Positions 8,228 to 44,973 of a DNA stretch of 54,087 nt are shown here, piece by piece (position 1 is the stretch's first letter; every line of letters begins with the position of its first letter). Under the pieces are notes generated by a model that was given only the letters and a program-made list of their open reading frames with translations, did not search any database and had not been told where the DNA came from. Made by a program: the position numbers and the translations under genes. This DNA is from a virus (taxonomy: Duplodnaviria; Caudoviricetes), in IMG/VR virus record IMGVR_UViG_3300046777_000758, positions 1-54,087 of that record. One strand, given 5' to 3'.

Positions 8228-8542
8228 TTAATTCACCTTTGATGCCAATTTAAGAACATTAATATTCTCAGCCAAAGCCTCATACATTGTCTTCCAAATG
8301 TCATTTACAATCTTATCTTCTTCACTCATCATACTTGACCGCCTTTTAAATGCTTGTGATTTAATAATCATCTGTGTTCTATAAGCAGCCAATAAGTTGG
8401 CATATTTAATTGCTTGTAAGCCTACATAGTGATTTGGATTATCAATTATATCCTGCACTATTCCCATACATTCAATAAATTCTTTTGATCTATCACCCAT
8501 ATGCTGAGCAATAAAATCAACATCAACAATAATATTGGTCAT
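8228..8542 (-). CDS. Hypothetical helical protein
   Basis: Tightly packed ORF in the operon. Confidence 0.7.
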   Translation of the reverse strand: MTNIIVDVDFIAQHMGDRSKEFIECMGIVQDIIDNPNHYVGLQAIKYANLLAAYRTQMIIKSQAFKRRSSMMSEEDKIVNDIWKTMYEALAENINVLKLASKVN

Positions 8543-8543
8543 T

Positions 8544-9314: not shown

Positions 9315-9317
9315 TAA

Positions 9318-31200: not shown

Positions 31201-32220
31201 AATATCCGAATTCATTACTGAGATTGTGTTTGCAGAATTGCTTAAATTTGATCTCAGTGTCGTTGTTAAAAGAGTGTCATTTGTTTTTTTAATTCTCCAT
31301 CCAGTTGAAACAGTAACTTTCAAGTCTTTCTTCATATATTTTCCATATGTAGAAGAATTGTTAAAAACACTCCAGTCTTTATTGGCATTATCCAATTTTA
31401 TTGTAATTTTAGGTGTCTGAGTACCACCGATAGGAAGACTGCTTTCATGCACATCCCTCGCTCTTGACACAGAGTAATCAATTACATAATCAGTTATATC
31501 GACTTCAAAGATTGGAGAGACTTCATGTATTCTTGCATAATCTAAACCATTTTTTGTTGAAATTATTGTTAATTCAACTCTTGTTGCAAGATAGTTTGAA
31601 GATATGGCATTAACGCTATTTAGATATATGTCTTTATAATAATCATCATCTTCAAATACAACTGTTTGATCAAGAATATCAACTAATGATGAATTTTTAA
31701 CTTTTATTCTAAAAGATTTAACTTGACCATAATACTCAGAAGTAGTTACTCTAATCTTATTAACTTTTCTTTCTTCAAATGCATATGTTATAACTGGGGA
31801 TGACGCAAAGACACCGTTTGCTTGACTTCTTGTTTTAGACCACCACCCAAATTCATAATCTCCATCAAGATTATTATCGGTATCAAGAGTTGTTGGCATA
31901 CAATGCCAACTTCCATCTGCTGTAATAATTTTCCCTTTTTTATCTAAGGCATCAGTTACAGCCCATGTAAAAGACTCTCTTTCATAGCCGTTAATGATTT
32001 GTTGCTCTGAGAAGTAGTAGCCAATTGAGCCTTCTGATTTTACAATATGAGCATCAGAGTTAGTAATATTTGCATTAGCAGTTAAAACATTTGCAAGAGT
32101 AATGTGACGACTATCTAATAAGTCAATAATAACCTTTGGTTTAACATTTTGGGCAGGAGATTGTATAGCAGAATTAAAATAATTTGATAAATTTGCTCCA
32201 TATGTATTCTTTGTTAACAT
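28285..32220 (-). CDS. Large tail tip/hub protein with LamG-like and PA14-like inserts
   Basis: Position after the TMP; FTIE...YYIAVTY....YING...IDEFAIY (LamG-like); Y.LRIEFF.G.G (PA14-like). Confidence 0.75.
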   Translation of the reverse strand: MLTKNTYGANLSNYFNSAIQSPAQNVKPKVIIDLLDSRHITLANVLTANANITNSDAHIVKSEGSIGYYFSEQQIINGYERESFTWAVTDALDKKGKIITADGSWHCMPTTLDTDNNLDGDYEFGWWSKTRSQANGVFASSPVITYAFEERKVNKIRVTTSEYYGQVKSFRIKVKNSSLVDILDQTVVFEDDDYYKDIYLNSVNAISSNYLATRVELTIISTKNGLDYARIHEVSPIFEVDITDYVIDYSVSRARDVHESSLPIGGTQTPKITIKLDNANKDWSVFNNSSTYGKYMKKDLKVTVSTGWRIKKTNDTLLTTTLRSNLSNSANTISVMNSDIFPSGGSGNNFIITINPDKENREIILCNAVTSTNTLSVTERGVQQTDANTHTAGSLIHFDPYEYVAMGTFYVDEWTADTGSMTVTMQASDWSKFLTEKKLTNGFLLENKVMSEAVQNLLMRRNFPKADFIHNLPYSKGVSQLGGVLRYSFSEDSIDRNGVATTLEPGLRARFWGARAGSEYNYKTIKADVLEKNISVEERIKGEAIYAAPDKIVNSADVSIPDNTDILSPIKYGVNLVNYIFESTLNSVTYTKYFNGVIDGYYFPVNNGSQKLVLDIAYGGGRIYLDDLLIGESNKENVSVSIESIPLTLIAGNPYRLRIEFFHGYGDANFSISLHSLISATKTLLPASRFRSVVARDGLGSRNLTGTVPSSYSRDDIAENHHQNDAFIQANAQLNYSSEIQSGDGNKGILLIDGAYIRVPNHNSIAITEEDFTIELVAKFNDGHFSTGDGEYLSSWANSNPANGFEFFYNDNSSHGFKIKTTGPTTTTASVSDTTDLLQSEFYYIAVTYNANTNLLSYYINGDLKDTDTVNGNVVLNSSDLTIGGRGASFSAGTENAPSTTREFIIDEFAIYKNCLTNDEIKERYISSKIAYTATFPFIYSEQEHIRGAIDEITLADLGRFYIDEESYARYEHYNRFFETTIDQHANIQYTFSDSTNIVDGNLNVQLQTNKVVVKISSVSKLSNDSEILWSLNDKTTLGVVRLVTNILTSDTGIHVSTTSNPVFPNVGYLAFTKDDQTEIVRYGSKSENYFLNVERGKFGTPILGNVAANNTKIREARYYEVTYDKKPAATVLFPIATGIVDDEPNTIDIVKFESNPYTARLIIAASSNVAYDSHIYVQGEDPRSNIESSFAIYGVPVVATLNNAQITEKKESISENVRKYGLKELVIESPYITTEEHAQQLASFIIEKMSEPVPIITINTMCVPKIQLGDRIRISSFDAFDITNQDYWVISQEFGYGDTLTQSLTLRKVV

Positions 32221-33209
32221 TATGCCTCTTCCAAACTTAAATTAAGTTGATACAAGTATACATCTTCCGAAAGGTATCTTCTTGACAAAGTTTCGCTATA
32301 TGTAGTGACAAATACAGTATATGTTGTTTCTGTATATGGGGTTGTGCCCGAAGCATCTAAATTTATGACTTTTAATTCATGTGCATCAGGATCTTCAGCA
32401 ATTGAACTTATGTAATCCCTGCCATGTCTAGAGTCTACGGTATCCTCCATTGCATTTGGAACATTGGCCCAGTTTATTGTAAAGTTTTTTCTACCCGAAC
32501 TTGTTGCTCTTTTATAATATCTACTTTTACGATTATTCCAATTTGAAGACTCTACAAAAACCGGTGACAAAGACTCTTCAAATGTTCTGCCATGATCTGT
32601 TAATGGTTTGCCATCAAGAATAAGAAGTGTTCTATGCGATGATGAATCAATGTATGAAGGGGAAAATCTAATTGGGGCATTTATAATTACTCTAGACTGT
32701 ATAGAGACTTGTTGTCTCATGTAACTAATCAACGTTGAATGAAAAGCAGGAATTGCAGTAATATTAGATGATGCAGATGCTTTAGCAATCTTTTTTGATG
32801 TTGGAGTTACAGTTGTTACAATATCAGCAAATGCAATAGCTGATGTAGTCTTTTTAACTGATACAGAGATATTTGAAGATACTGATACTGATGCAGAAGC
32901 GCTTGTTATTTTTTGAGTGCTTACTGATATTGTTGAAGTAACATTTACAACTGATAATACATGTAGAATCTCTGAGGGTATTGACTCAGATATTAATTCA
33001 ATTTGAATTTCAGATGCTGCTCCTATAACCTCTATTGCAGTGACACTATTAGAAGAACTTATTGAAATTGATGAAGATGCAGTAGCAACCCTAACTGCCG
33101 ATGTTGTTACATCAGAATTTATAGAGACTGTTGATTGAGCATTGGTTTGACCAATATAAAAGTCAATATCACTAAGTTTCGGACCTATCTCATAGTATTC
33201 ATCAGCCAT
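32220..33209 (-). CDS. Minor tail protein (Ser/Thr/Ala-rich N-terminus, distal-tail-like C-terminal domain)
   Basis: Position in the tail module; C-terminal about 140 aa resemble the product of 33209-33628. Confidence 0.65.
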   Translation of the reverse strand: MADEYYEIGPKLSDIDFYIGQTNAQSTVSINSDVTTSAVRVATASSSISISSSNSVTAIEVIGAASEIQIELISESIPSEILHVLSVVNVTSTISVSTQKITSASASVSVSSNISVSVKKTTSAIAFADIVTTVTPTSKKIAKASASSNITAIPAFHSTLISYMRQQVSIQSRVIINAPIRFSPSYIDSSSHRTLLILDGKPLTDHGRTFEESLSPVFVESSNWNNRKSRYYKRATSSGRKNFTINWANVPNAMEDTVDSRHGRDYISSIAEDPDAHELKVINLDASGTTPYTETTYTVFVTTYSETLSRRYLSEDVYLYQLNLSLEEA

Positions 33210-33628
33210 TATTGCTCACCAATATCTATTGTAACATCATAATATGAACAAGAATTTTCAATATCCCTTCTGACTAATTTCTCTGTATAAGAGTTAACAA
33301 AGCATGTATATGTCTCAAAATCATCTATCGGAGATAGTTTTATAGAAACTGTTACTGTACCTCTTGTGTTTGAGATAGACTTTAGAAAATCTCTTCCCGC
33401 CCTACCGTCAACAGTTTTATCTGTTCCATTTGGCAAATAGGTAAAGCTAAGTTTAAATGTCTTTTTATTCTTTTTAATATATCTTCTATTAATACCACGT
33501 GATAACTCAATAGATGAGCCAGATTGCTGTGTTTCAGTTACAATTTTACGATTATGCTCAGTTATCTGAGTGCCATTAATTGATAGAAGATGTGTCAATC
33601 CTGTTTGCTGGTTTTGTATTGCTGGCAT
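33209..33628 (-). CDS. Distal-tail-like minor tail protein
   Basis: First gene after the TMP; 139 aa, beta-rich. Confidence 0.68.
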   Translation of the reverse strand: MPAIQNQQTGLTHLLSINGTQITEHNRKIVTETQQSGSSIELSRGINRRYIKKNKKTFKLSFTYLPNGTDKTVDGRAGRDFLKSISNTRGTVTVSIKLSPIDDFETYTCFVNSYTEKLVRRDIENSCSYYDVTIDIGEQ

Positions 33629-36600
33629 TATAGACCTCTGTTAATTCCTCTATATGTTGAGATTGTTGTATTGTTCAATCCAGCAGCCTTTTGATTTTGC
33701 GGGGCTACATTAATATTATAGTCTTTCATCATTGACTCAAACCAAGCCTTTTCACCAATAAAGTTGTCAACATAAATGTGAACGGTTGATGTTGAAGAAG
33801 ATTGAGGCTGAACTGGGCCGGAATAACTTGGCGACTTAGGAGCATTGAATCTCATTTGATTGAGGGCTTCAAGAGCAGAAAGACCCAAGTTCTTAACAGC
33901 GCTAGAGTTAATTACATACTCTCCACCGTGAAGCATTGCTGGAACGCCTTGTGAAGCGAATGCGCTGACGAAACCACCGTTAGCAAAACCTCTGATTAAA
34001 CCGCCATTAAAGTTTCCTCTTGGCGGTCTGATTGGATATGAATCTGGTAGTCCCAATACAAGATCACGCAATTCAGATTGTTTTGGAATTGGGACACCTT
34101 CTTGATCAAGCAATTGTGACCCCATTGTTTTTCTGGCTTCTTTTAGTGCGTTTGTAATTTTTTCTCTTCCTTTAAAAATTTCAAATCTAAGATTAACATC
34201 ATCGTAAAAATTTGGTATTGAAGCCAAGTCTTCTTCCAAAGCCTCATAAAGATACCCGTGATAGCCAACTGAACTAAAGTCCATCACATTCGCAGAACCT
34301 CCAGTTAAATATTCTTCTAGGGTAGGAACATGAACTTTAATATTGGGGTCTAAAACTTTAAATATTTCATTTAATTTATGACCTAATATAAATGAGTGAG
34401 GTGATGTTGAACCGGGGAATATATTAGTAATTCCTTTAGGTTTTAAAACTTTTTCATAAACATATGCCATTACATTAGTCAAATCAACTGAACCAGGTAT
34501 ATTGTCAGACTTTTTGAGCATATCAACTTTCAATCCGTAACCTTGCTGACTTAACCACCTTGGTAAATCATCAATGCTGAACATAAACTCAACAGTTTGA
34601 CCATAGGAACCGCTATTACCAAGTTTTCTCCACATTTCGACTGTATTACGACCAGAGTCATAAGAAGGAGATCTATGAAACAACTTTGATTCATCTTTCA
34701 TAATTTTTCCAATTACTGATTGACTAAGACCTTGTTTTGGATTATAGAGTCTTGCTTTTCTAATTGCTTGAGAAATTTGAATATTTTCAAGAATAGTTGA
34801 TCTCATCTTATTTTTAGGAACTTTTCCATTAATAAGACCTGTTAGCAGATATTGATGCATCTTATCAAAATCTAAATGGCTAAAAAATCGAGGAGGAAGA
34901 TTGTCAATATCGTCAAAGAATCCAAAATCAACAAGACCTGATTCCATAAGTTTTCTCTGGAAAACCTCATCTGGCAATCCAAAACTCTTAAACAACCTCT
35001 GAAAGTCTCTATAACCAATTGAAGGAGCGCCGATATTTGATACCCTTCTATAATTACTATTAAGCCTACTAACAATGTCTAATGCAAGATTAAACTGTTC
35101 TAGACTAGTGCCTTTTTCCATTCTGTTTCTTATTAGTCTTGAAACCCTTTCATTATAAAAATCAGGAGATGATGGCAAAAACGAATCCATTGTGCCCCAG
35201 CTACCAAATTCAAGATAATTAGTTCTACCTAGTGAGGCACTTGCCCCAATTTGATTTAATATTTGACCCTGTTCTTGTGAGAATGTTGGAATCAATCCAG
35301 AAGGCATTGGAATTCTTGTACCGGGGAAGAATTGATCAACATTTCTCAATGTAGCAACATCAGTAAGTTTATCAAGATTCTTAAGTGTTTTAATCTTTGA
35401 TGGCATTGTAAGATAGCCAGAGTTTGGTGCAAATACAGTTGTTGGACCAATTAATCCAAGACCGGCAAACAAAGCATTAAGACTTCTATCACCAGTGCTT
35501 CTATTCTTATCCATAGCCTTAGTTGCTGCGAACGCACCACCAACATATGGCAAAAGCATTTCACTAGCAGCTTTTGAATATGCAAAACCAGTTCTATAAG
35601 CTGGATTAGAGAGTGGATCTCTAGGGCTGAATTCCGTTTGTCCACTGTCAAGTTGTTGAGCCGACTTCAAACCAGCAAAGAACCCATTTCCTGAGCCATA
35701 TAGCGCTTCTTGCCCTTTCTTCTTAAAGAAACCACTAATTGATGAAAGGCCTTTTTGGAAAATATTCTTCTTACTATCTTTAATTTTCTGCTGGGCAATG
35801 TAAGTAATGCTTTGAAGATCCCAATTACTATACTTAGATTCAAACTTTCTAAAATCAGCAGCAGATGGTGTCTTAGTATTCTTTTGACCTTTTACAAGAC
35901 CGCCAGTTTCGTAACCTCTAATAAGACCACCATTAAATACTTCATCAAGTGGAATTCTATCTATTATACGGCTAGGAATTGGAGGAGGAGGAAGAACTGA
36001 TTGTGGTGATAAAGATTCATTATGAACAGTTCTCATTGTTCTCATAAAGATAGCGCCAGCAGGTGTTTCTAAGAAACGTCGGAAAGGCCAAGAAAGAAGG
36101 CGAAATGCATTTTCGTCTATGCCTGTTGATGATGCAGCCCTTCCTGCCATCCATTGCAAATCTCTCATATTTCTAGCGTTAGCGCTATAATCTTCATATG
36201 CTTTTTGCCATTCATCTGCTGACTTTGGAACCCTTCCTGCTTTCTTTGCTTCTTTAGATGCTTGCAATAATGATTTTTCACCAGCCTTGACTTTTGCTTT
36301 TGCTAAAATATCTTTTATTCTATTAAAATTGTTCAAAAATATTTCTCTATCCAACTCTGTTTGAAATATCTTTCCACCAGTTAGCATGTTTGGAAATTCT
36401 ATATTGTTTGGCCTCCAATTTGATAATGGAGGTGTGATAACTTGAACTGATGGATCTAGAAATTCCATCATTGCGCTAAGTCTGTCAGAAAGAGCATATG
36501 AATATTTTGAATAGCTCCCATTAGTAACGGTAGTAACATTGTGCTTTTTAATTATATTCATATAAACAAAAGCTAAAAGTTTTGAAACATCAATTTGATT

Positions 36601-39600
36601 AAAATCAGCCAGAGAGTAAAGACCACCAATCTGAAGATTCCTTCCACCACCAGTGCCAGCATTTGAAACAGAAAAGTTAAATGAAGCACTTGGGAATAGA
36701 GCATTTTCTGGTATAAAATCCATTTCAGGTAAGCCTAAATATTTAGCATCTGATTGTTTAGTTGCTCTCCTCATAATAGTTATCAAATAGTTGCCAATAC
36801 CATCAGCTGGATTAAGACCATAGGGTGTAAAATCAACACCTATAGCCATATTTTCTGAAAAAGTTTTTTGTAATTTTTCTAAATTTCCTTGCTTTAACAA
36901 TTCCATAAGTTGTTGTCTAACATTCAAAGGGAAGTTGTCATATTCAGATGAAAGATTTGACATCTTAAATCCGCTATAATAACCAGATTTTGATTTTTCA
37001 ATTCTATCTTTTATACTTGCTATTCTTGAATCTCTAATATATTTTATTCTTTGTTGTTCATTTACCTCATTTAATATAGCAAGATTTTCTGGTGTCAAAT
37101 TTGCAACTCTATTCCCTGTGCCAAAAGAACGTCTTATATTTCTCTTAAAAGGAATCAGGCTTGAAGCTAAATCGAATGTTTTTTCTCTTATTGAAATGCC
37201 AAGTTCGCTATAAACATCTTTTAATGCTGGGAAAACACCGCCAAACATGTTGTTAATATCGCCAAGCACACTCTTATCTCTTAAAATTTCTGGCTTTCCA
37301 AATCTTTCTCCAAAATATTCAGCAGTCTTTGAAGTATATTTTGTGCCAAAAGGGCCTTGATCTGCATAAGTATAGAATTTCTTAGGTGCTAACTTAGGAT
37401 TCTTAATTAATTTTTTAATATCAGTTATTTCATTACCAATTTTGACAGATATTGGATATTTTTCATTAATTTTATTGCTCAACTTATAATATGGATTCAA
37501 CATTGTCTTATATATTGAACGAGGAAGTGAGAATTTTTGCCTAGTTTCAAAGTCCAAACCTGATTCATACGCATTGCCAAAAAATTTTCTTACTTTTTTA
37601 CCACCATATACATCAGGCCAAGGCGGTAGAGGTTCGCCTCTAGTAATAAACTCATTTTGGATTCTCATAGCACGTTGAAATGCCATTTCTTTTTGATGAT
37701 AAAAATATTCAGGATAACTCATATCTTCAAGAAGACCACGTGAAGATGGGCGCATACCCCTTGTCTTTCTCATTAAAATGACATTCTTTAAATCTTGTAA
37801 TTCTTTATATTGTTTATATAGTTTTGGATTCTTATTAAAGAAGTTAGATTTCTTAGCCCAGTATGCATCGGCTAGTGTTTCACGACCTGCTTTAGTAAAT
37901 AATTGAGAAGTTGTTTTAAATCCAGATTGAGTCCCTGTTTTAAATTTACTAAGTCCAGATTTAATTCCAGATATTCCAACAGCAGGATCAAGACCAAGTA
38001 GAGCCAACATATCTCCACCCATATTGGTTGCCATGTATGCACCAGAACCCTCTTTTGCAATTCCAGTCTTATCAAGACCATAATAAGCCAACAAACCGCC
38101 TGGGCTTAAAATAGTTCCTTTACCAAGAATTGACCTATTCTGAGAAGCCTCTTTCATAGCTCTTTCTGAAGCAGACACTGGTATGAAGCCAGCAAGACCA
38201 AATGGCCCTCTATCTAGCCCCATTAATTCTCTATAGTCTTTTCCTGTTGTAACCATCTCCTTGGCAGCTTTTAATGTCTGACCCAAGGATGTTTGCATGA
38301 AAGGACTTGCAATCAGTTGGTTAAATAGACTTCCTTTAGCCTGTGACTCTCCAAGCCCGGCTTTACCAAGAAGGGTTGAGCCTAAAGCAACTGCAAACTC
38401 TGGAGTAAATGAAACGCCAGCAAGGAATGATGAAACACCAAGTTTTGCTGTATTTGCAACGCCAGTGGCAACTTTTCCTAATGTCTTATCCCAAAGAGAA
38501 ACTTTTGCATTTTCCGGCTTATAAGCCAAATCACTAAATGGATTTAATACCTTTCTTTGATTAGCAACATTGTATCCACTTTCTTTCATCGCCTTTATTC
38601 TGGCTGATGTTTGATCCATCATTGCTTGATAGTTATATTTGTAAACTCCTTCTTGATCAAATTTTCTAAAGTCTGCGACTGAGGATAGTTTCTTTTTACC
38701 CTTTACAAGACCACCAATTGCCAAAGATTGAAAATCTTCAAATTCCGACATGTCCTTGTATTTTTTAACAGGTTTACCATCTTTAATCCAAATAGGCTTT
38801 GAGAATGGCATAGTAATTTTATCAAAATCTTTAGATTTTTTAGTAAAATATTTAGTGTATGCCTTCTTTGCCTCTCTAGTGTTAAAACCACCACCTATTG
38901 CTCCAAAATTATAAAAAGGATTATATCCAAGCTGTGCTTCATAGGAGATATTAGGATTAAAATTTTCAGGTAAAGGTATTTCTTTTGTTTTAGATCTGTA
39001 ATTTTCAATTATCTTATTATTTTTATCATAAAGATTCTTTCTATCAAAACCATGACTTCCTGTTCCTAATGGCTTGTTATACCTAATAGTGCCAGCAGGA
39101 AAATCTGAGCCTGGTGCAATTTTTCTAATCCAACCGAATACAGCAATTCTATTTTTAACAACCATTTGCTGGAGTTTTGTTGCTTGATCCGCAGTCTCTG
39201 CAAATTGCTTTCCGCCATAATCAATCCATGTATCGTCATTTGTTCTAAGACCACCTCCCATCCAGCCATGAGTTGTGTGAACTCTGCCTTTCCAATCAGC
39301 TAGCGTACCCCAAGTTTTTCCTCTACTTGATTCTGCTAGTGCGATAGCAGTCAAATATTCTTTTGTTAGTCCTCCGTTATCTTGTTGCCATTTCCATTCT
39401 TGATATGCAGGGTCTGAACGATCCAGATTGTGTGGAATTACATAATTTCTACTAGCCTTGCCTTTAACCAAACCACCAATAGCGTAAGGCTTTGGCTTAT
39501 ATGTTCCTTGGTTAATTTGTTGCATCATTCCCCAACCATATTTCTTAACGGCTGAGTTTCTTACAACATATTCACCACCATGAAGAATTGCTGGAATGCC

Positions 39601-42600
39601 TTGTTGAATTGGGCCCTTTGTTGGACCACCCATTGCATATGGCATACCACCCTTAAAGAAACCACTTCTTCCGCTCTCATCAGTTCTTGCTTGTGCACCT
39701 GCACCCTTTGTAAATAATCTTCTGTTATTTACAATGTATGCATATACAAGTTCTGAGTTTGTTGTAATTTGATCTTTGTATCTGTTTGCAGCAACAACAG
39801 GGAAGAAGTCCTTCATACCCTCATCGTGACCACCAAGAAGAACTGCTGAGGATGCAATTGAGCTAACAATACTCTTAATTGAGGTTACAAGCTTCTTACC
39901 TTCTGCTGTGCCTCCATACTTGTCGCTAAGGTATTTATCAGAATATTGCTTAATTTTTCCAAGATCAGCATTAGCAGTTGCAATTGAAACTTTATTTCCA
40001 TCCTTAACGCCATCATTGTTATACCCCGGCTTTGTAGTACTACCTCCACCTGTTCCTGGTGTTGTATTGTTAGAACCTGCTCCAGTTGTACCTACAAGGT
40101 TCTGGTACTTATTATAAATGTCGTAAAGTTTTTGGAAAGCTGCTGATTTTGTATCAATAATAGTTGTAAGAGTATTTGTTAAACCTTGATACTTTCTTGT
40201 CAAAGCATTAATGCTTTCATCAATAGTTTTATTCCATACACCTGTTGGACCAAATGGGTTATTATCTGCCAATGTCTTTGAAATTGCAGCCAGTGATGAA
40301 GTTAACGGTCCAGTTGCATTAACTCCAAGAGATGATAGTGCACCTCTAAATGAGTCACTAAATGTTTGCCCCATGCTATTTGCAATTGCTTTTGCACCAA
40401 TAAAACCATTTCCACCCTCAATTAAATTATTCAACATAGTGTTGAATTCTTCAGCAGTCGTTGGAGGGAATTCAGTAATCTTCTTTGCAGCGTCTGTAAA
40501 CAGAGTAATCATTGAATCAAAATACTTAGATGATGTATCTTTAGCATCTTTAATTGACTGAATTAATTCATTTCTATTTTCTTCCGCAACTTCTCTAATT
40601 CTATCTTGATTAATTTGATTAATGTTTTCATTATCTTGAACTTCTTGTCTGGCAGCAGCATCAGCAATATTTCTTGCTTCATCAATCTGACCAGCGTAGA
40701 TGGCCATCGCATAACTTCTTCTGCTGTTTGTTCTATTAATAGACCTTTCAAGTTCTGCTTCTCTTAACTTGTTTTGATATTCCTGTTCTCTTGTTAGTTT
40801 TTGCTCAGCTTTTCCGACAGCCTCAATGCTCTTAATTTGATTATCATAAACAGTAAGAGCATCTTCTTTTTGCTTCTTTAATGTTTCTTGTAATATATCA
40901 ACAACATTTTTCATCGTATCTTTGATACGGTCTGCTATTTCTTGCTGTAATTCTTTTTTAATTTCTTTTATTCTGGATACTAATTTTTCAGCACCTTCTT
41001 GAGCGCCTTCATCAAAACCACTTCCTACAGAACTTGTAATTGCCTCTTGTGCATCATCAGTATCAACTTCAACACTATTTTCATCTTTACCGCCAAAAAG
41101 ATCAAGTTTACCTTTGCTCTTCTTAACTCCAATTTTTGATATCTTATCAACCGCGCCTTTTGCTTTATCAGCAACGCTATCGATACCTCTTTTAATTACA
41201 TCACCACCAGCATTAACTGCATTTGCAACAGTTCTAACTGTGCTTAAGTATGTGTCTCTTGCTGACTTTAATCCACCAAGAGCAGCATCACCTACGCCTC
41301 CCAAGAATCTTCCTAGCACCGGTATTCTTTTAACTTGTCCTAATACCCATTCAACAAAACCAAAGAACAAATCTGTTGCCTTTTCAATACCCCAAGCCCA
41401 AGCTTTCATAAAGGCTGACGGAAGTTCAAATAGAATATTAATGATTTGCTTTATTAAGAATGCGATAACTTCTATTCCAAGTTTTGCAATTCCACCAAAT
41501 ACATTGGCAAAAGCGCCAGCAAGAGCCTTTAGCGCATCACTCCATTTACCTTGGAATATGTTAACAACAAATTTAACTAGATTAACAACACCGTAAAGGT
41601 ATGGCTGAATGATATTTTCAACCAACCATTTGAACATATTTGCAACAAATTCTAATACCTTTGTAAGACCATTAAATGCATTACCTAGACCTTGCACAGC
41701 ACCTTCAGAATCCTTTGCACCATTACCAAAAGAACTAAACAAATCAATGAAAGGTCTTGCAAGAGATTCAATTGTTTGCTTTAATGTTCCAAAAATCTTC
41801 TTAAGCGTTCCAAAACCAGAAGCACCAGCTTGCTTGAACTTGTCCATGTTCTTCATTACAAGCATTACAGCAACGCCAATTGAAAGAATAATAACTCCAA
41901 TACCGGAAGCTATGAGAGTAATCTTTGTTAACTTGATTGCATTATTGACAAGACCAAATGATTTTGCAAAGCCCATAACCCCTGCTCTCATCTGTGCAAA
42001 TTTGCTTGGACCAGTTCCTGTGAAAGCAAGAGTTTCAATTGTTAAAGCTTTTTGTGCTGCTTTAGCAGCGCTTAATGCACCAGTGTATGATGTTACAGCC
42101 TTACTTGGAAGCGCTCTGATTGCTCCCATAGCAGCATCAGATTTTGCTCCTGCTGTATCAATTGCTCCTAAGATTCTTCCTCTTATTCCACCTCTAGCAA
42201 TTCCAAGCGCTCTTTCTTCAGAGATTTCACGACCACCTCTTCTAAGAATTCCACCACCCAGCGATGATGATGTTGAGGTTCTTTCAATACCAGCGGCTTC
42301 AAATGCTCTTTGTCTGAGATTAATTGCTGAACCAACATCTTCACCAGAAATTGATCTATAACCCATTGTTCTTCTGAGAATGCCAGCCCTTTGTTGGATG
42401 TTATATCTTGTACCAGAAGCACCACCTCTTCTAAGCCCCATTTGCTCCATTGCAAATTCTTCTTCGGCAAAAGCTTTTCTTGCTGCTCTGCTTACTCTGA
42501 GTGTTGGATCTTCAGCATCAATGATTCCACCTGCTGTTCTTCTTAATCTTCTTGTTGCAGCAGGACCACCTACATATTCAATTGCCTCTGCTCCAGCAAC

Positions 42601-44973
42601 GCCGGGAAGAAGACCTCTTGAAACTTTTTGAGACATTACTTCTCTTGTTAAGCCAATTGGAGCAGTTGTTTGCTTTTGCAAAACACCCGACATTGTTCCA
42701 AGTTTTTCAGCCATTTTTGCAACTGGCCCTTGACCACTTGCAAGCGTTGCAATAAATGTTGCAAACTTACCATTAGTATTTACAACAGTATCTCCAACTG
42801 CTTGCAATGGTTTTGTAAGTCTAAGCATTGCATCTCTACCAGCCAATGCTTCAACTGACATTGTTTTAAGACCTGGTATAAATCCAAATAGGACTTTACC
42901 AACGCTTCCCATTGCAAGTCTAAATTGACCAAATACGAAAATCAATGGACCAATTGCAGCAGTAAGACCTGCTACTACAAGTGCAGTAGTTGAAATTAAT
43001 TTCTTTGTTTGATCATCTAGATTAGACCAAGCATTGTAAAGTTTTGTTGAAATCTCTACAAGTTTTTCTATTGTTGGCTTTATATTAGTTAATAGATCAG
43101 CTGCAAATGTTTTAAAGTTGTTTTTAAGAATTGATAACTGTGTATCAAGAGAGCCAAGAGCTGCTTCTAATTCTCTTTGAGCAATCTGAGAAGCGTTAGC
43201 AGCACCTGCAAGTTCAATAAACATTGCTCTACCAGCCTCTGTTCCAACTTGACCAATTAAGTCTTCTCCACCTTCTCTTTGTGCTTTAAGAATTTCTTTG
43301 CTTAATTCTTTTCTAACTTCTTTTGCAGCTTTAATTTGTTCTGCTGTAACTTTTTCTGCTAAACCTTCAATTTGTTGACCTGCTGTAGCAGTTGCAATTC
43401 TTGCGATAACTCCAATATCTCTAAAGCTATTAACTAAAGGAAGATTTGCTTTACCTGCTTTGTTTGCAGAAGTAACTGCTGTGTTCGCAAAATCTTGTAA
43501 TTTTTTTTCTGCACTTATTGTTGTTGGAATTGTTTTGTCTTTTAATATGGCATCAAAAGCAGCCAACTGTGCGATAGCAACTTCCATTCTTGGACCTTGA
43601 CGAACACCAAAGACCTTTGAAAAGAACTCCATTGCGCCTTCTTGACCAGCAGCACTTTTCTTAATTTCATTAAAACCATCTACAAGTTGCTGAATGGCAT
43701 CTAAGCCAGTTCCTTTAACAAGATTAAAGTTTGTATTATATTCTTTTGATAACTGCTTAAACAATTCTGCGTTCTGTTTAGTTGGTGCAGTTAGTCTCTG
43801 CAATGAAACCTTAATTGAGTTAGCAGAAGCACCAACTTCAAAACCTGCTGCTTTCATTGGTGCAAGCAGTGCGCCTGCTTCAGTCATTGACAAACCAAAA
43901 GATGTAGCAGCAGCAGCAACTTCAGGGAATGCGTCTCCCAAGTCTTTAAGTGTTAAAGCAGTTACGTTTTCAACAGAGTTGAACAAGTTTAATTGAGCAG
44001 TTGCTGCTTTGATAGCAGCAGTTTCTCTTTCACTAAATGAAAGTCTTTTTTGCCCCGGCCCCTTTGACGCTTCCTGTTCTTGAATTGCTCTTTGTGCTTG
44101 GAAGTAAAGGCTCTGTACAAGATCTTTTGCAGCTCCAATATCCATATTGCCAAGTTTTTCAGTCTTGGCAGTAAGCTCTGTAATAAGAGCAATATTGTCC
44201 GTTGTTTGAATACCTAATTCAGCAAAGTCTCCAGCAAGACCGACTGTAAGACTCTTTGCAAGACCAAACTTTGTACTTGTTGTAGATAGTTGCTTATCCA
44301 AAGCTTGATAACTTGCAACCATCTTATCAAGTTGCACATTTTGTTCTCTAGTTGCTGACGCTAAATCAACGCCCATTTTCTTAGCAGCAGCATCAAGGTT
44401 AGGAGCAACGCTTTCAAGAACCTTATTAAGTCTTACGAATTCTCTGTCAATAGCAACAAGAGTTTGTAAGCCAACCCTGCCGAACCCCATGATTGGAGTT
44501 GTAAGACCGATGATGAGGCTTCGACCTACGAACTGTGCATCTTTACCAAGTCTCTTCTGCTCTTGCGATAATGATTTTAAATCTTCAACAAGAGCTCGTA
44601 CTCTAATTCCTTTTAAAGAAGCCTCATACGCCTTTAGGTCGGATACAGCAGCCCTTCTAAACTCTGCTGAGGCACCTGTAGCGAACTTATAAGATGTTCC
44701 AAGACCAGAAATTTCTTTTCTGACTCTGTTCATCTCATTTGTAAGAACTGCATTATTTCTTGCAAGTTCCGAAACAGATTTTGCGTGATTCTTTAATGAT
44801 GAATCTGATGAACCAATTGCAGCAGATAGCGCACGACTTCTTGCATCCAAATTTTTCATTGGATTTGTTGCACCCTGAACAGCCCTGTTCAGTTGCTGCA
44901 TTGCATTACTTAAGTTATATACCTTTTCGACACCCGAAACGGCTATACCTAATACAATATCTACATCACTCAT
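33628..44973 (-). CDS. Tape measure protein with large C-terminal cargo region
   Basis: Follows the tail chaperone; Ala/Gly-rich helical N-terminal half; GG...G.PA.LHGGEYV....AV motif present twice. Confidence 0.93.
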   Translation of the reverse strand: MSDVDIVLGIAVSGVEKVYNLSNAMQQLNRAVQGATNPMKNLDARSRALSAAIGSSDSSLKNHAKSVSELARNNAVLTNEMNRVRKEISGLGTSYKFATGASAEFRRAAVSDLKAYEASLKGIRVRALVEDLKSLSQEQKRLGKDAQFVGRSLIIGLTTPIMGFGRVGLQTLVAIDREFVRLNKVLESVAPNLDAAAKKMGVDLASATREQNVQLDKMVASYQALDKQLSTTSTKFGLAKSLTVGLAGDFAELGIQTTDNIALITELTAKTEKLGNMDIGAAKDLVQSLYFQAQRAIQEQEASKGPGQKRLSFSERETAAIKAATAQLNLFNSVENVTALTLKDLGDAFPEVAAAATSFGLSMTEAGALLAPMKAAGFEVGASANSIKVSLQRLTAPTKQNAELFKQLSKEYNTNFNLVKGTGLDAIQQLVDGFNEIKKSAAGQEGAMEFFSKVFGVRQGPRMEVAIAQLAAFDAILKDKTIPTTISAEKKLQDFANTAVTSANKAGKANLPLVNSFRDIGVIARIATATAGQQIEGLAEKVTAEQIKAAKEVRKELSKEILKAQREGGEDLIGQVGTEAGRAMFIELAGAANASQIAQRELEAALGSLDTQLSILKNNFKTFAADLLTNIKPTIEKLVEISTKLYNAWSNLDDQTKKLISTTALVVAGLTAAIGPLIFVFGQFRLAMGSVGKVLFGFIPGLKTMSVEALAGRDAMLRLTKPLQAVGDTVVNTNGKFATFIATLASGQGPVAKMAEKLGTMSGVLQKQTTAPIGLTREVMSQKVSRGLLPGVAGAEAIEYVGGPAATRRLRRTAGGIIDAEDPTLRVSRAARKAFAEEEFAMEQMGLRRGGASGTRYNIQQRAGILRRTMGYRSISGEDVGSAINLRQRAFEAAGIERTSTSSSLGGGILRRGGREISEERALGIARGGIRGRILGAIDTAGAKSDAAMGAIRALPSKAVTSYTGALSAAKAAQKALTIETLAFTGTGPSKFAQMRAGVMGFAKSFGLVNNAIKLTKITLIASGIGVIILSIGVAVMLVMKNMDKFKQAGASGFGTLKKIFGTLKQTIESLARPFIDLFSSFGNGAKDSEGAVQGLGNAFNGLTKVLEFVANMFKWLVENIIQPYLYGVVNLVKFVVNIFQGKWSDALKALAGAFANVFGGIAKLGIEVIAFLIKQIINILFELPSAFMKAWAWGIEKATDLFFGFVEWVLGQVKRIPVLGRFLGGVGDAALGGLKSARDTYLSTVRTVANAVNAGGDVIKRGIDSVADKAKGAVDKISKIGVKKSKGKLDLFGGKDENSVEVDTDDAQEAITSSVGSGFDEGAQEGAEKLVSRIKEIKKELQQEIADRIKDTMKNVVDILQETLKKQKEDALTVYDNQIKSIEAVGKAEQKLTREQEYQNKLREAELERSINRTNSRRSYAMAIYAGQIDEARNIADAAARQEVQDNENINQINQDRIREVAEENRNELIQSIKDAKDTSSKYFDSMITLFTDAAKKITEFPPTTAEEFNTMLNNLIEGGNGFIGAKAIANSMGQTFSDSFRGALSSLGVNATGPLTSSLAAISKTLADNNPFGPTGVWNKTIDESINALTRKYQGLTNTLTTIIDTKSAAFQKLYDIYNKYQNLVGTTGAGSNNTTPGTGGGSTTKPGYNNDGVKDGNKVSIATANADLGKIKQYSDKYLSDKYGGTAEGKKLVTSIKSIVSSIASSAVLLGGHDEGMKDFFPVVAANRYKDQITTNSELVYAYIVNNRRLFTKGAGAQARTDESGRSGFFKGGMPYAMGGPTKGPIQQGIPAILHGGEYVVRNSAVKKYGWGMMQQINQGTYKPKPYAIGGLVKGKASRNYVIPHNLDRSDPAYQEWKWQQDNGGLTKEYLTAIALAESSRGKTWGTLADWKGRVHTTHGWMGGGLRTNDDTWIDYGGKQFAETADQATKLQQMVVKNRIAVFGWIRKIAPGSDFPAGTIRYNKPLGTGSHGFDRKNLYDKNNKIIENYRSKTKEIPLPENFNPNISYEAQLGYNPFYNFGAIGGGFNTREAKKAYTKYFTKKSKDFDKITMPFSKPIWIKDGKPVKKYKDMSEFEDFQSLAIGGLVKGKKKLSSVADFRKFDQEGVYKYNYQAMMDQTSARIKAMKESGYNVANQRKVLNPFSDLAYKPENAKVSLWDKTLGKVATGVANTAKLGVSSFLAGVSFTPEFAVALGSTLLGKAGLGESQAKGSLFNQLIASPFMQTSLGQTLKAAKEMVTTGKDYRELMGLDRGPFGLAGFIPVSASERAMKEASQNRSILGKGTILSPGGLLAYYGLDKTGIAKEGSGAYMATNMGGDMLALLGLDPAVGISGIKSGLSKFKTGTQSGFKTTSQLFTKAGRETLADAYWAKKSNFFNKNPKLYKQYKELQDLKNVILMRKTRGMRPSSRGLLEDMSYPEYFYHQKEMAFQRAMRIQNEFITRGEPLPPWPDVYGGKKVRKFFGNAYESGLDFETRQKFSLPRSIYKTMLNPYYKLSNKINEKYPISVKIGNEITDIKKLIKNPKLAPKKFYTYADQGPFGTKYTSKTAEYFGERFGKPEILRDKSVLGDINNMFGGVFPALKDVYSELGISIREKTFDLASSLIPFKRNIRRSFGTGNRVANLTPENLAILNEVNEQQRIKYIRDSRIASIKDRIEKSKSGYYSGFKMSNLSSEYDNFPLNVRQQLMELLKQGNLEKLQKTFSENMAIGVDFTPYGLNPADGIGNYLITIMRRATKQSDAKYLGLPEMDFIPENALFPSASFNFSVSNAGTGGGRNLQIGGLYSLADFNQIDVSKLLAFVYMNIIKKHNVTTVTNGSYSKYSYALSDRLSAMMEFLDPSVQVITPPLSNWRPNNIEFPNMLTGGKIFQTELDREIFLNNFNRIKDILAKAKVKAGEKSLLQASKEAKKAGRVPKSADEWQKAYEDYSANARNMRDLQWMAGRAASSTGIDENAFRLLSWPFRRFLETPAGAIFMRTMRTVHNESLSPQSVLPPPPIPSRIIDRIPLDEVFNGGLIRGYETGGLVKGQKNTKTPSAADFRKFESKYSNWDLQSITYIAQQKIKDSKKNIFQKGLSSISGFFKKKGQEALYGSGNGFFAGLKSAQQLDSGQTEFSPRDPLSNPAYRTGFAYSKAASEMLLPYVGGAFAATKAMDKNRSTGDRSLNALFAGLGLIGPTTVFAPNSGYLTMPSKIKTLKNLDKLTDVATLRNVDQFFPGTRIPMPSGLIPTFSQEQGQILNQIGASASLGRTNYLEFGSWGTMDSFLPSSPDFYNERVSRLIRNRMEKGTSLEQFNLALDIVSRLNSNYRRVSNIGAPSIGYRDFQRLFKSFGLPDEVFQRKLMESGLVDFGFFDDIDNLPPRFFSHLDFDKMHQYLLTGLINGKVPKNKMRSTILENIQISQAIRKARLYNPKQGLSQSVIGKIMKDESKLFHRSPSYDSGRNTVEMWRKLGNSGSYGQTVEFMFSIDDLPRWLSQQGYGLKVDMLKKSDNIPGSVDLTNVMAYVYEKVLKPKGITNIFPGSTSPHSFILGHKLNEIFKVLDPNIKVHVPTLEEYLTGGSANVMDFSSVGYHGYLYEALEEDLASIPNFYDDVNLRFEIFKGREKITNALKEARKTMGSQLLDQEGVPIPKQSELRDLVLGLPDSYPIRPPRGNFNGGLIRGFANGGFVSAFASQGVPAMLHGGEYVINSSAVKNLGLSALEALNQMRFNAPKSPSYSGPVQPQSSSTSTVHIYVDNFIGEKAWFESMMKDYNINVAPQNQKAAGLNNTTISTYRGINRGL
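39130..39360 (-). other. Rpf-like (resuscitation-promoting factor/transglycosylase) domain within the TMP
   Basis: AIALAESS (catalytic Glu) ... GGL....TW..YGG..FA..ADQATK.QQ..V. Confidence 0.72.

Follow-up and report, generated by a model that had tools for sequence, protein, structure and literature searches.

The open reading frame on the minus strand that forms the subject of this analysis is, judging from its sequence, a siphophage tape measure protein (TMP) with the plan core plus cargo plus end-piece (Table 1). It lies in a window, the whole stretch of DNA analysed, that is a metagenomic contig of 54,087 nucleotides with an estimated completeness of 52%. Between two copies of an end-module, M1 and M2, the predicted protein holds about 1,815 aa that comparison with relatives identifies as an accessory insertion of three cassettes, and the same comparison identifies the insertion as exchangeable, with the [FY]x(x)GG joints on either side of M marking the ends of indels and recombination blocks. 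Taken as a whole, a TMP of core, exchangeable cargo and end-piece, together with the cargo delivery scheme set out below, is the explanation we prefer and, on balance, consider probable.

First, the identity of the frame is indicated at both of its ends. PF10145 matches it above the Pfam cut-off (E 1.2e-11), as a domain at aa 233-455 of a core whose hydrophobic segments fall at aa 664-695, 1021-1039 and 1156-1174, and 11 PHROG families match the terminal motif region, about 9-10 of the 11 being annotated as TMPs and the matches falling mostly toward the C-terminal end of the profiles. A tail gene module surrounds the gene. A neighbouring tail protein of 1,311 aa carries PA14 and Laminin_G_3 domains. 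An incomplete metagenomic contig might be thought to have yielded an artefact, through chimeric assembly or the fusion of adjacent genes by sequencing errors, but this is very improbable: the frame runs unbroken through 11.3 kb, 75 of the 116 TMPs, which come from numerous independent contigs and sources, have at least two M modules, and a colinear relative TMP of 3,764 aa lies on a 90.5-kb contig.

Table 1. Features of the predicted tape measure protein, with positions in the window
Feature	Residues (aa)	Position	Strand	Description
TMP ORF (P0001)	3,781 aa	33628..44973	-	one open frame; PF10145; PHROG; tail gene module
Conserved ruler core	1-1771	39661..44973	-	PF10145 and hydrophobic segments; colinear with single-M relatives of 1,883-2,195 aa
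M1, internal gpH-type end-module	1772-1838	39460..39660	-	linker 1, YAIGGLVKG, forms the C-flank; profile resembles lambda gpH 733-776
Cassette 1	1839-2082	38728..39459	-	Rpf-like transglycosylase core at aa 1845-1960, then variable part
Linker 2, LAIGGLVKG ... SVADFRKF	2083-2106	38656..38727	-	5' edge of the 92.5% DNA block in common with L003
Cassette 2	2107-3010	35944..38655	-	leader Na2, variable middle, GNAT-like domain, Lys/Pro-rich end
Linker 3, FNGGLIRG-YETGGLVKG ... SAADFRKF	3011-3044	35842..35943	-	3' edge of the 92.5% DNA block with L003
Cassette 3	3045-3653	34015..35841	-	leader Na, variable middle, GNAT-like domain
M2, terminal gpH-type module	3654-3723	33805..34014	-	N-flank is linker 4, FNGGLIRG-FANGG
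C-terminal tail piece, 66 aa	3716-3781	33631..33828	-	many invariant columns in 19 aligned relatives
LHGGEYV copies	1797-1803; 3681-3687	39565-39585; 33913-33933
GGLVKG copies	1833; 2087; 3024	39460-39477; 38698-38715; 35887-35904
GGLIRG copies	3015; 3657	35914-35931; 33988-34005
ADFRKF copies	2100; 3039	38659-38676; 35842-35859
FANGG	3663	33973-33987

Second, the end-module, with its HGGE core, occurs twice in the protein, and the repeats are not due to chance, because the M1 and M2 regions align to each other at 42% identity across 60 aa (self-alignment, E 1e-13) and none of 5,000 shuffles of the protein reached the observed counts of GG[LIVF][LIV][KR]G (5, shuffle mean 0.02), ADFRKF (2, shuffle mean 0.0002) or LHGGEYV (2, shuffle mean 0). 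The duplicated C-terminal motif of a preliminary description of this DNA is thereby upheld, and the motifs, linkers and ADFRKF copies that it listed are all present, none more than a few bases from where it had placed them. Internal copies are of the M1 type and terminal copies of the M2 type in 178 of 203 cases, the 25 exceptions all lying outside the window's own subfamily. Linker 3 looks like the scar of a further module, an N-flank fused to a C-flank with the HGGE core lost; relatives with three M modules have a complete one here, between the GNAT-like domain (Gn) and the leader (Na). The tail piece, which by analogy with 80alpha, T5, lambda and Douge is presumed to dock in the tail tip, ends 113 of the 116 TMPs checked and is absent only from P0113, P0114 and P0119, the last of them a fragment. 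The linker copies of the window protein differ at synonymous sites and have only short identical DNA runs in common, and they are thus read as conserved peptides rather than long DNA repeats, which makes them poor substrates for homologous recombination inside one genome. Conservation of the peptides despite synonymous differences suggests selection on the peptide. It speaks for a second reading, in which cutting at the GG linkers or M modules would set several independent effectors free into the host at infection, GNAT-type host-modifying enzymes among them, in analogy to polymorphic toxins or polyvalent proteins; we hold this effector polyprotein to be possible but doubtful.

Third, relatives differ in the insertion and agree on what surrounds it. 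Single-M relatives of 1,883-2,195 aa have the core joined directly to the terminal module: one such TMP (L015, 1,940 aa) aligns to aa 2-1831 and then to aa 3657-3781, and when the last 125 aa alone served as bait, 9 of the 17 complete TMP frames, counted without de-replication, were single-M proteins of this size range. Over 35 relatives the first M starts at 1802 +/- 46 against a total length of 3374 +/- 375, independently of that length since r = -0.09. The number of M copies per TMP (n = 116) is 1 in 41, 2 in 59, 3 in 15 and 4 in 1; clustering sorts the 100 inter-motif regions into 66 groups, and the cargo ranges from no block through an empty M1-M2 site to one to three blocks of differing content, as expected from the earlier proposal that the inter-motif region is expandable and polymorphic. 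Two phages whose DNA is 93.7-95.9% identical across about 20 kb (L007 and L014) have as their sole large difference an in-frame block between linkers, 2.1 kb in L007 and 37 nt in L014, so that M1 and M2 are adjacent in the latter. Compared with L003, cassette 2 of the window protein lies in a block (aa 2085-3043) that is 92.5% identical in DNA over a background of 75-79%, with breakpoints at linkers 2 and 3, whereas cassette 3 is replaced, with almost no DNA similarity until aa 3662, where it returns; at the protein level cassette 3 is about 25-30% identical between flanks of at least 85% (85-100%). More generally, 42.4% of 4,836 HSP ends fall no more than 12 aa from a linker (10.5% for random placement), or 17.3% of 2,479 against 7.1% when the M modules are excluded, and BLAST HSP ends cluster near linker 2 at aa 2106-2108. 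The suggestion that cassette number and content would vary with breakpoints at the linkers is supported, and the linkers behave as recombination joints insofar as breakpoints occur there, but not insofar as copies within one genome would have to be long DNA repeats. That modules swap at joints would also suit an effector polyprotein. Plain ruler extension as the sole function, with the extra 1,800 aa mainly lengthening the tail and the cassettes being duplicated, diverging TMP end-units without activity beyond the known embedded muralytic motif, is unlikely: the array can be read as tandem leader-middle-Gn-M units, but the length of the core is tightly conserved and that of the cargo is not, and the divergence of cassette 3 between its conserved flanks resembles diversifying exchange and not the neutral drift of a spacer.

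The content of the cassettes bears on both of these alternatives. Cassette 1 is assigned as an Rpf-like transglycosylase, in agreement with the preliminary description, by matches to phrog_29757 transglycosylase (E 1e-7) and to Pfam Transglycosylas PF06737 (E 3.9e-5; 24.7 bits, just below the 27-bit cut-off), and most close relatives likewise have an Rpf-like module after the first M. In the same slot relatives hold bona fide enzyme domains, a Sortase (E 2e-21) and a Reprolysin-like zincin (E 2e-9), each above its cut-off, which argues against a mere ruler; sortase and zincins in this slot point to a Gram-positive-type envelope. The recognisable cargo enzymes (transglycosylase, sortase, zincin) are thus envelope-acting and not cytoplasmic toxins, contrary to what release of effectors would lead one to expect. 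The zincin motifs of relatives could carry out processing, as the available text on polyvalent proteins proposes for those (PMC5512222), but no HExxH, and hence no zincin, occurs in the cargo of the window protein itself. A search of 1.84 billion representatives with the cargo returned 13 matches, all TMPs or TMP fragments, so that the cargo is confined to these TMPs, and stand-alone cassette genes were not found among them, which counts against an effector polyprotein; three of the matches are short, two ending in M2 and tail piece like 5'-truncated TMPs and the third fragment-like.

Cassettes 2 and 3 are, from their alignment, paralogues that follow one plan, as had been described: a GGLVKG...ADFRKF joint leads into a leader that is rich in Gly and weakly hydrophobic, and after a variable middle comes an alpha/beta domain of about 200 aa. 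A common domain of about 120-200 aa aligns at 24% identity (aa 2794-2912 with 3496-3616, E 5e-11) and the linker/leader start is also common to both (E 4e-4); the leaders occupy aa 2107-2400 (Na2) and 3045-3215 (Na), and the shared GNAT-like domain aa 2729-2915 and 3420-3620. The comparison of the leaders to pre-toxin segments with hydrophobic helices is weakened, each leader showing one weak hydrophobic peak and no enrichment of GxxxG. Weakened, too, is the assertion that the insert is unlike tape-measure helix: outside the domains of roughly 200 aa AlphaFold2 returns mostly helices of low confidence, through most of cassette 2 and in the leaders, and these may be nothing more than ruler and favour plain ruler extension. 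The mean pLDDT is 41.0 for cassette 2 (moderate only at aa 2772-2852 and in one helix) and 48.7 for cassette 3, where residues ~311-630 of the modelled segment have values of 60-87. The compact alpha/beta domains with conserved polar residues weigh against such an extension. From these models the common domain is classed as GNAT-like, at structural scores below threshold. With the cassette 3 model, 34 of the best 50 VIA rows are titled acetyl/acyltransferase or GNAT (Z 5.5-6.8; the best, 6.8, is below the usual threshold of 8), and GNATs are the high-probability rows in both Foldseek searches, which gave no match at E <= 0.001 against PDB or BFVD; the cassette 2 model found generic helix matches only. 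Toxin GNATs are among the VIA matches (7byy_A, Z 6.4; AtaT 6gtp_A, Z 5.5), in keeping with an effector polyprotein, but neither cassette matches a toxin, effector or any other Pfam family at E <= 0.01, or anything in the ESM Atlas. GNATs bind acetyl-CoA through a loop with the motif Q/R-x-x-G-x-G/A. This motif is not conserved in the domain family: the consensus retains a single Gly together with an Asp, and in the copy from cassette 2 the loop site lacks Gly altogether.

Known tails supply analogies for the ends of this protein. The M profile matches lambda gpH 733-776 weakly (hmmsearch E 0.19; hhalign probability 78%, E 1.7e-5), within the cleaved fragment gpHC; in lambda, cleavage of gpH has been placed in a Gly-rich stretch close to the C-terminus, and gpHC is bound to gpI (PMC12617516; PDB 8IYK). 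Homology of M to a gpH region near the cleavage would favour release of effectors. The M profile and gpH align over an [FY]ATGG joint, an H-x-G-E-[FY]-V core, an A..RIG helix and a second YATGG joint, and in both proteins the module lies about 100 aa from the end and ahead of a hub-binding tail piece, but lambda has one module and no cargo, whereas here two copies of the module enclose 1,815 aa and a third seems reduced to a scar. T5 pb2, as described, resembles the window protein in its order of parts: a hydrophobic stretch, a muralytic domain and C-terminal helices held in the hub. It is cleaved after R1127, and the enzyme part so split off, pb2C, remains in the tip until it enters the envelope as the first part to be expelled (PMC10038345); pb2C has 92 residues and one metallopeptidase motif, whereas the counterpart here, with its several cassettes, has about 20 times that length and differs from one relative to another. 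[quoted passage not shown] Douge gp16 has two M-like modules (963-1016 and 1410-1463 of 1,699 aa; whole-protein E 2.8e-8), about 390 aa apart, and residues 1,658-1,699 form a trimer in the hub of a 269.6-nm tail (PMC13033339; PDB 8ZDO), a description that, in its available text, does not mention the duplication. A reading in which the cargo is not ejected but folds outside the lumen of the tube, as structural material of an enlarged tail tip, is improbable. Three copies of 1,815 aa are too large for the Dit-Tal cavity, so that an unusual tip is conceivable, and the PA14 and Laminin_G_3 domains of the adjoining tail protein would imply an elaborate one; however, the available descriptions of 80alpha, T5, lambda and Douge place the TMPs inside the tube with only the last 20-40 residues ordered in the hub, and the near-identical phage L014 does without the cassette that L007 has.

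Divided among all 1,699 aa, the length of the Douge tube comes to 0.159 nm per residue, which supports a ruler role for residues between modules and weakens the short tail implied by the preliminary description. Ruler extension is also favoured, in the sources available for them, by the shortening of the TM4 tail by about 20 nm when the 114-aa mt3 motif is deleted (PMC1796659) and by the 800-nm tail that accompanies the 5,002-aa TMP of Thermus phage P23-45 (Nat Commun 2024). Such a role is compatible with the explanation we prefer, since the cargo could serve as a ruler and be active as well. Barnyard motif 1 (Rpf-like) and TM4 motif 3 are embedded in the TMP, count toward tail length and are non-essential aids to infection; they share with cassette 1 the placing of an Rpf-like or peptidoglycan-hydrolase motif inside a TMP but are, in the text available, single small motifs within the ruler and not described as exchangeable arrays bracketed by end-modules (PMC1796659). 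The TMP of Corynebacterium phage P1201 (gp45; NC_009816, locus L052) uses the same grammar of joint plus lytic cargo, with an M-like module, then Y-A-T-GGLVKG, then NlpC/P60-like and SLT-like regions (domain names assigned by sequence inspection), a joint ahead of lytic domains that would likewise suit an effector polyprotein; it differs in its core, LLSDKEYV against LHGGEYV, in having just one M, which lies about 750 aa from the end, and in lacking a conserved tail piece of the kind seen in the window protein. P23-45 gp96, similarly giant, delivers a functional enzyme with the virion and has metallopeptidase and membrane domains, but its cargo is an N-terminal RNA polymerase, and motif-bounded exchangeable cassettes are not described in the text available (Nat Commun 2024). 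Polyvalent proteins of phages and conjugative elements combine many unrelated domains in one polypeptide delivered with DNA, their variable modules recombine, and lysozyme-type and zincin domains are frequent, but the available text has no word beginning with 'tape', whereas here the scaffold is a TMP (PMC5512222). Sle1, a TMP-related modular effector of an actinobacterial contractile injection system, is likened here by description: in both, a carrier derived from a TMP and loaded in a tail-like particle bears a functional domain that can be exchanged, but the system is not a phage and the functional domain is one and C-terminal (PMC13277306). Polymorphic toxin systems exchange variable modules by recombination. 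Immunity genes were not found near the TMP gene in the window.

Finally, the delivery scheme would run as follows. [quoted passage not shown] The Rpf-like domain would then open the peptidoglycan, and the two GNAT-like cassettes would act on some envelope or host target. Until then the cargo, to go by Douge, probably occupies the lumen of the tube and contributes to tail length, which would be about 570-600 nm if all residues count and about 275 nm if the core alone does.

P0001, the tape measure protein (TMP) that carries the array, is encoded by the longest gene in the tail module, in the place expected of a TMP between tube/chaperone genes on one side and distal tail genes on the other, on a linear contig of 54,087 bases (estimated 52% complete, G+C about 35%) whose minus strand holds nearly all of the long ORFs. 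A match to PF10145 (PhageMin_Tail) at aa 233-455 (E 1.2e-11, 45.3 bits against a gathering cut-off of 33.2), the position in the tail module, and hydrophobic membrane-type segments at aa 664-682, 1021-1039 and 1156-1174 (Kyte-Doolittle peaks 2.2, 2.6 and 1.7) of a largely helical protein identify it as a TMP of the TP901/PhageMin_Tail type. Among the 11 PHROG families matched by its first 1,832 aa, 10 are annotated as tape measure protein, as are 9 of the 11 matched by its last 125 aa, mostly near the C-terminal end of the profile. Neither of the two ORFs directly following the gene has a Pfam or PHROG family match, and the large tail protein further downstream is, from its domains, probably a carbohydrate-binding host-recognition protein.

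Tail-module features of the window, with the TMP of a cultured phage for comparison
Feature	Location	Strand	Length	Remarks
TMP ORF, P0001	33628-44973	-	3,781 aa	single ORF
Ig-domain protein	upstream of TMP			phrog_2175
Minor tail protein and tail fibre	downstream of TMP			family matches
ORF directly after TMP	33209-33628	-	139 aa	Dit/hub protein expected at this site
Second ORF after TMP	32220-33209	-	329 aa	Dit/hub protein expected at this site
Tail protein	28285-32220	-	1,311 aa	two genes downstream; PA14 (E 8e-6), Laminin_G_3 (E 1e-15), C-terminal minor-tail-protein match
P1201 TMP	2158-8541 of L052 (NC_009816)		2,127 aa	cultured Corynebacterium phage

All of the motifs named in the preliminary description were found in P0001 where it had placed them. 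The end-module with the HGGE core, hereafter M, occurs once internally (M1, aa 1772-1838) and once terminally (M2, aa 3654-3723), with three cargo cassettes between. Whole-protein self-BLAST returned the identity match only, and segments were instead compared with one another: the two HGGE regions share 42% identity over 60 aa (E 1e-13), and cassettes 2 and 3 share a domain, Gn, at aa 2794-2912 and 3496-3616 (E 5e-11). The leaders of these two cassettes (Na2 and Na, respectively) also start alike (E 4e-4), which together with the common domain upholds the proposal that both are built on one plan. P0001 contains the linker pattern five times and ADFRKF and LHGGEYV twice each, counts equalled by none of 5,000 shuffles of its sequence.

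The region between the two M copies is an accessory insertion. The TMP of the related locus L015 (1,940 aa) covers P0001 aa 2-1831 and passes at once to the equivalent of aa 3657-3781; over the first 788 aa the identity is 71%. When viral contigs were searched with the last 125 aa of P0001 alone as bait, 47 loci were recovered, and among their 17 complete stop-to-stop frames, counted without de-replication, nine carry a single M (1,883-2,195 aa) and eight carry two. Across 35 members of the window's subfamily, the start of the first M falls at aa 1802 +/- 46 and the total length is 3374 +/- 375 aa (range 2,686-4,269), the two quantities being uncorrelated (r = -0.09). A length-restricted search with the C-terminal half of P0001 yielded 113 giant TMPs; by profile count over 116 proteins, M is present once in 41, twice in 59, three times in 15 and four times in 1, proportions that do not represent population frequencies because such a search favours long proteins. 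The cargo slot holds up to about 1,800-3,000 aa of exchangeable modules, and the contigs carrying such TMPs reach about 90-117 kb.

It is at the joints, the GG-type linker peptides between modules, that relatives gain, lose and swap cassettes. First, two related loci, L007 and L014, are 93.7-95.9% identical in DNA over ~20 kb, and differ at only one large site, where L007 has 2.1 kb (7915-10057) and L014 has 37 nt. The L007 protein (2,740 aa) has a ~680-aa cassette between M1 and M2, whereas in the L014 protein (2,034 aa) the M1 core is followed by a short [FY]xxGG joint and then directly by the M2 core. Second, L003 encodes a colinear TMP of 3,764 aa on a 90.5-kb contig, and its DNA identity to the window, 75-79% in the background, is 92.5% across TMP aa 2085-3043, a block that begins in linker 2 and stops in the ADFRK of linker 3; in cassette 3 only a 110-nt DNA match is left, similarity returning at aa 3662, in linker 4. 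At the protein level the identity is ~80% in the core, ~50% in cassette 1, ~90% in cassette 2, ~25-30% in cassette 3 and 85-100% in the end-piece. Third, clustering of 100 inter-motif regions at 60% identity over 70% of length gives 66 groups, and together these TMP alignments bear out the expectation that cassette number and content would differ among relatives with ends at the linkers. In 48 multi-M TMPs, 42.4% of 4,836 internal BLAST HSP ends lie no more than 12 aa from a linker pattern (10.5% at random) and, outside the M modules, 17.3% of 2,479 lie near linkers (7.1% at random), figures that are descriptive since HSP ends are not independent events.

The linkers had been proposed as recombination joints, and this stands insofar as exchange ends there; it does not stand insofar as long DNA repeats would drive recombination within one genome. 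The window's linker copies differ at synonymous sites, so the joints are conserved as peptides and long intragenomic repeats were rejected as the driver. The pattern is explained by exchange between genomes. A second hypervariable spot lies outside the cargo, in the 100 aa before M1 (aa 1651-1750; window 39724-40023), where identity to L003 is ~13% compared with ~80% in the surrounding core.

Profile mapping revealed a consistent module order: M, Rpf-like domain, optional C1b, leader (Na or Na2), variable middle, Gn, optional M, and so on, the array ending in M and then the tail piece (the last 66 aa of P0001). Relatives with three M copies have a full M at the site of P0001 linker 3 (FNGGLIRG-YETGGLVKG), and this linker can be read as the N-terminal and C-terminal flanks of M joined without the HGGE core. 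M is duplicated in several TMP subfamilies. Within the window's subfamily the internal copies are of one type and the terminal copies of another, and a universal rule to this effect was considered and rejected: 178 of 203 copies fit, and the 25 exceptions, all outside the window's subfamily, comprise terminal copies of the internal type as well as internal copies of the terminal type. Such mixed types suggest repeated duplication or homogenisation. M2 lies 100 aa from the C-terminus, ahead of the tail piece, and in most of 112 motif-bearing proteins the last M is 98-117 aa from the end, the exceptions (P0032, P0037-P0040, P0045, P0070 and P0072) having it at 129-247 aa; phage Iggy likewise has an M-like module about 90-130 aa from its TMP end. 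Two proteins, P0113 and P0114, have three to four degenerate M modules that are seen by the profile and missed by the HGGE pattern, and lack the conserved tail piece. TMP repeats are known for an 11-residue periodicity, which is echoed in another subfamily (P0042-P0060 and P0070), where internal M modules are followed by a joint made of two or three tandem copies of an 11-residue repeat with the pattern F-A-x-GG-Y-M-T-x-P-G.

How does M relate to TMPs that are already understood? A search of the PDB by phmmer with M2 and the tail piece gave no matches at E <= 10, and mycobacteriophage Douge and lambda were reached only by a profile built from 30 M modules. In the Douge TMP gp16 (PDB 8ZDO chain S, 1,699 aa) the profile matches residues 963-1016 and 1410-1463 (E 2.8e-8); this cultured phage of solved structure thus has two M-like modules, ~390 aa apart. 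In lambda gpH (8iyk_H) the hmmsearch match at 733-774 is weak (E 0.19), and hhalign of M against the last 183 aa of gpH aligned 44 columns at gpH 733-776 (probability 78%, E 1.7e-5), with agreement in the motif and weak scores. In lambda, gpH is cleaved at an as yet unmapped site of a Gly-rich region near its C-terminus, to give gpH* and a ~14 kDa gpHC whose residues 818-849 bind gpI (PMC12617516). The matched stretch of gpH, like M2 of P0001, lies ~100 aa from the end of the protein and is followed by a piece that binds the hub or, in P0001, presumably does. Other TMP termini have been characterized: T5 pb2 is cleaved after R1127, between a hydrophobic stretch and the muralytic domain, and its pb2C is retained in the hub and expelled first (PMC10038345); in 80alpha the TMP C-terminus resides in Tal and tail assembly begins from Dit-Tal-TMP (PMC7048315); and TP901-1 requires the last 60 aa of its own TMP (PMC5099701). 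In the TMP of P1201, an M-like module with the core LLSDKEYV lies at about aa 1281-1330 and the joint Y-A-T-GGLVKG at aa 1360; judged by inspection of the sequence, what follows resembles first a Cys peptidase and then an SLT domain, and the protein closes with a long, charged helical region. It differs from P0001 in that a second M is absent.

The cargo itself is only partly recognizable. Cassette 1 had been called Rpf-like, and it is Rpf/transglycosylase-like on profile evidence that falls just short of the Pfam cut-off: PF06737 matches aa 1897-1944 (E 3.9e-5, 24.7 bits against a 27-bit gathering cut-off), phrog_29757, a transglycosylase family, matches at E 1.1e-7. A Glu in an A-E-S context occupies what would be the catalytic place of this family. 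PF06737 is also listed for several relatives in precomputed Pfam annotation. In the same slot, relatives carry a sortase domain (E 2e-21), reprolysin-like zincins (E 2e-9 and 3e-8) and Rpf-like domains, so the identifiable cargo is envelope-directed, and additional HExxH motifs occur in the cargo of others. The cargo of P0040 (aa 3270-4908) comprises an Rpf-like domain, an HExxH motif, Thr/Pro-rich spacers, a full sortase domain and, wedged between GG joints, a weak C2H2-zinc-finger-like peptide (E 0.009), and that of P0032 (aa 3229-4905) has two HExxH zincin motifs, one matching reprolysin-like families. A Gram-positive-type host may be inferred from the Rpf-like and sortase cargo.

Cassettes 2 and 3 resemble little else. 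Pfam searches with four pieces of them at E <= 10 gave two chance-level rows only, PHROGs gave no family for either, and the best ESM Atlas score was 0.87, below the useful range, with no structure model for the sequence. A query of cassette 2 plus the cassette 3 leader (aa 2083-3282) had 13 matches among 1.84 billion representatives, and all are TMPs or truncated TMPs, with no stand-alone spare cassettes; three short matches considered as such were discarded, since P0116 and P0118 end in M2 and the tail piece and resemble 5'-truncated TMPs, and P0119 likewise resembles a fragment. The pre-toxin-like hydrophobic helices once suggested for the leaders have become less likely, each leader showing a single, weak peak of hydrophobicity and GxxxG not being over-represented; a glycine-zipper reading, a lead from PMC10240207, was likewise rejected (1.0-1.2 GxxxG per 100 aa versus 1.7 in the core membrane region).

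AlphaFold2 models of the two cassettes, built on shallow alignments of 19 and 15 rows, are poor (mean pLDDT 48.7 and 41.0), with moderate confidence limited to Gn (about residues 311-630 of the cassette 3 segment, pLDDT 60-87), modelled as a four-stranded sheet followed by helices. Searches with the cassette 3 model point towards the GNAT fold, all below the usual thresholds. In VIA-align, run on 48,161 chains, Z peaks at 6.8, the top rows align ~105-127 residues at an rmsd of 2.9-4.5 A, and acetyl/acyltransferase or GNAT stands in the titles of 34 of the best 50; with Foldseek, neither PDB nor BFVD yields a match at E <= 0.001, and the high-probability rows are GNATs. The cassette 2 model gave generic coiled-coil or long-helix matches only and therefore no independent confirmation of the fold. 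GNATs bind the acetyl-CoA pyrophosphate by a loop of the form Q/R-x-x-G-x-G/A before helix 3. In the consensus of 30 non-redundant Gn copies this motif is not kept, the loop site having one Gly (at least 50%) and one Asp (at least 80%), and lacking Gly altogether in the cassette 2 copy; Pfam acetyltransferase families gave no match to either P0001 copy even at E <= 10. Gn was therefore not filed as a GNAT enzyme, and is called GNAT-like in fold only.

It is instructive to compare this arrangement with known classes of delivered proteins. Like polymorphic toxins, these TMPs recombine variable modules on a conserved carrier; unlike them, cassettes 2 and 3 contain no toxin families by Pfam, and no immunity gene lies next to P0001, the genes that follow it being tail genes or small ORFs without a match. 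Polyvalent proteins (Iyer et al. 2017) are delivered as one polypeptide in which several unrelated effector domains are joined to a processing peptidase of the zincin type; P0001 has three cassettes and no HExxH in its cargo, and its relatives P0032 and P0040 have reprolysin-like or HExxH motifs together with sortase. The preliminary description is confirmed in its observation and partly supported in its interpretation as an effector-delivery platform.

Relatives among catalogued phages are distant. With tblastn, the C-terminal 2,010 aa had no matches at E <= 1e-5 in 50,697 phage records; the first 800 aa matched only distant (25-27%) Streptomyces and Rhodococcus phage TMPs, and the last 125 aa matched 19 records at E <= 0.01, in one place each. 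Scanning viral contigs with cassette 3 by exact pattern match returned no relatives, because patterns must match exactly, and among 221 pattern matches to the last 125 aa in genome contigs there was no relative and no prophage.

Upon this architecture, an accessory insertion with exchange at its joints, a possible course of infection can be sketched. The tail piece and M2 would anchor in the tail tip, and the cargo, directly behind this anchor, would be the first to leave. The Rpf-like domain may then cut the wall and the GNAT-like cassettes act on some target, cleavage near M perhaps freeing the cargo. As to tail length, the published accounts of Douge (a 269.6-nm tube for 1,699 aa, or 0.159 nm per residue; PMC13033339), of TM4 (a 114-aa motif deletion shortening the tail by ~20 nm; PMC1796659) and of P23-45 (a 5,002-aa TMP and an 800-nm tail; Nat Commun 2024) favour, by analogy, that every residue counts, in which case the tail of the window's phage would be about 570-600 nm long; with the core alone counting, it would be about 275 nm.

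Lytic motifs within TMPs, cleavage of TMPs and giant TMPs that bear enzymes all have precedents. Searches of open-access papers and bioRxiv turned up no account of exchangeable, multi-cassette TMP cargo bounded by repeated copies of a gpH-type module. TMPs are usually seen as rulers, sometimes with one small lytic motif; in this clade of uncultured phages, the distal end of the ruler has been turned into a cargo slot fenced by copies of a gpH-type module. M offers a sequence-defined candidate for the gpH/pb2-type processing region, and the GNAT-like domain and the leaders are new protein families confined to these TMPs. Natural phage pairs with and without cargo could test its share in tail length and its role in infection. 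The joints would also offer natural sites at which to insert engineered proteins for delivery by the tail, provided that exchange there is as free as the comparisons indicate. A bolder idea, which we hold only tentatively and think rather unlikely, is that the gpH-type module is a portable "cut-and-dock" unit, each copy marking a maturation cleavage, such that a multi-copy TMP would be a polyprotein loading the distal lumen with separate exchangeable proteins that enter the host before the DNA. If it were true, the GNAT-like cassettes would be a new family of pre-made host-modifying enzymes for the first seconds of infection, and the tail lumen of long-tailed uncultured phages would be a programmable protein-delivery compartment.
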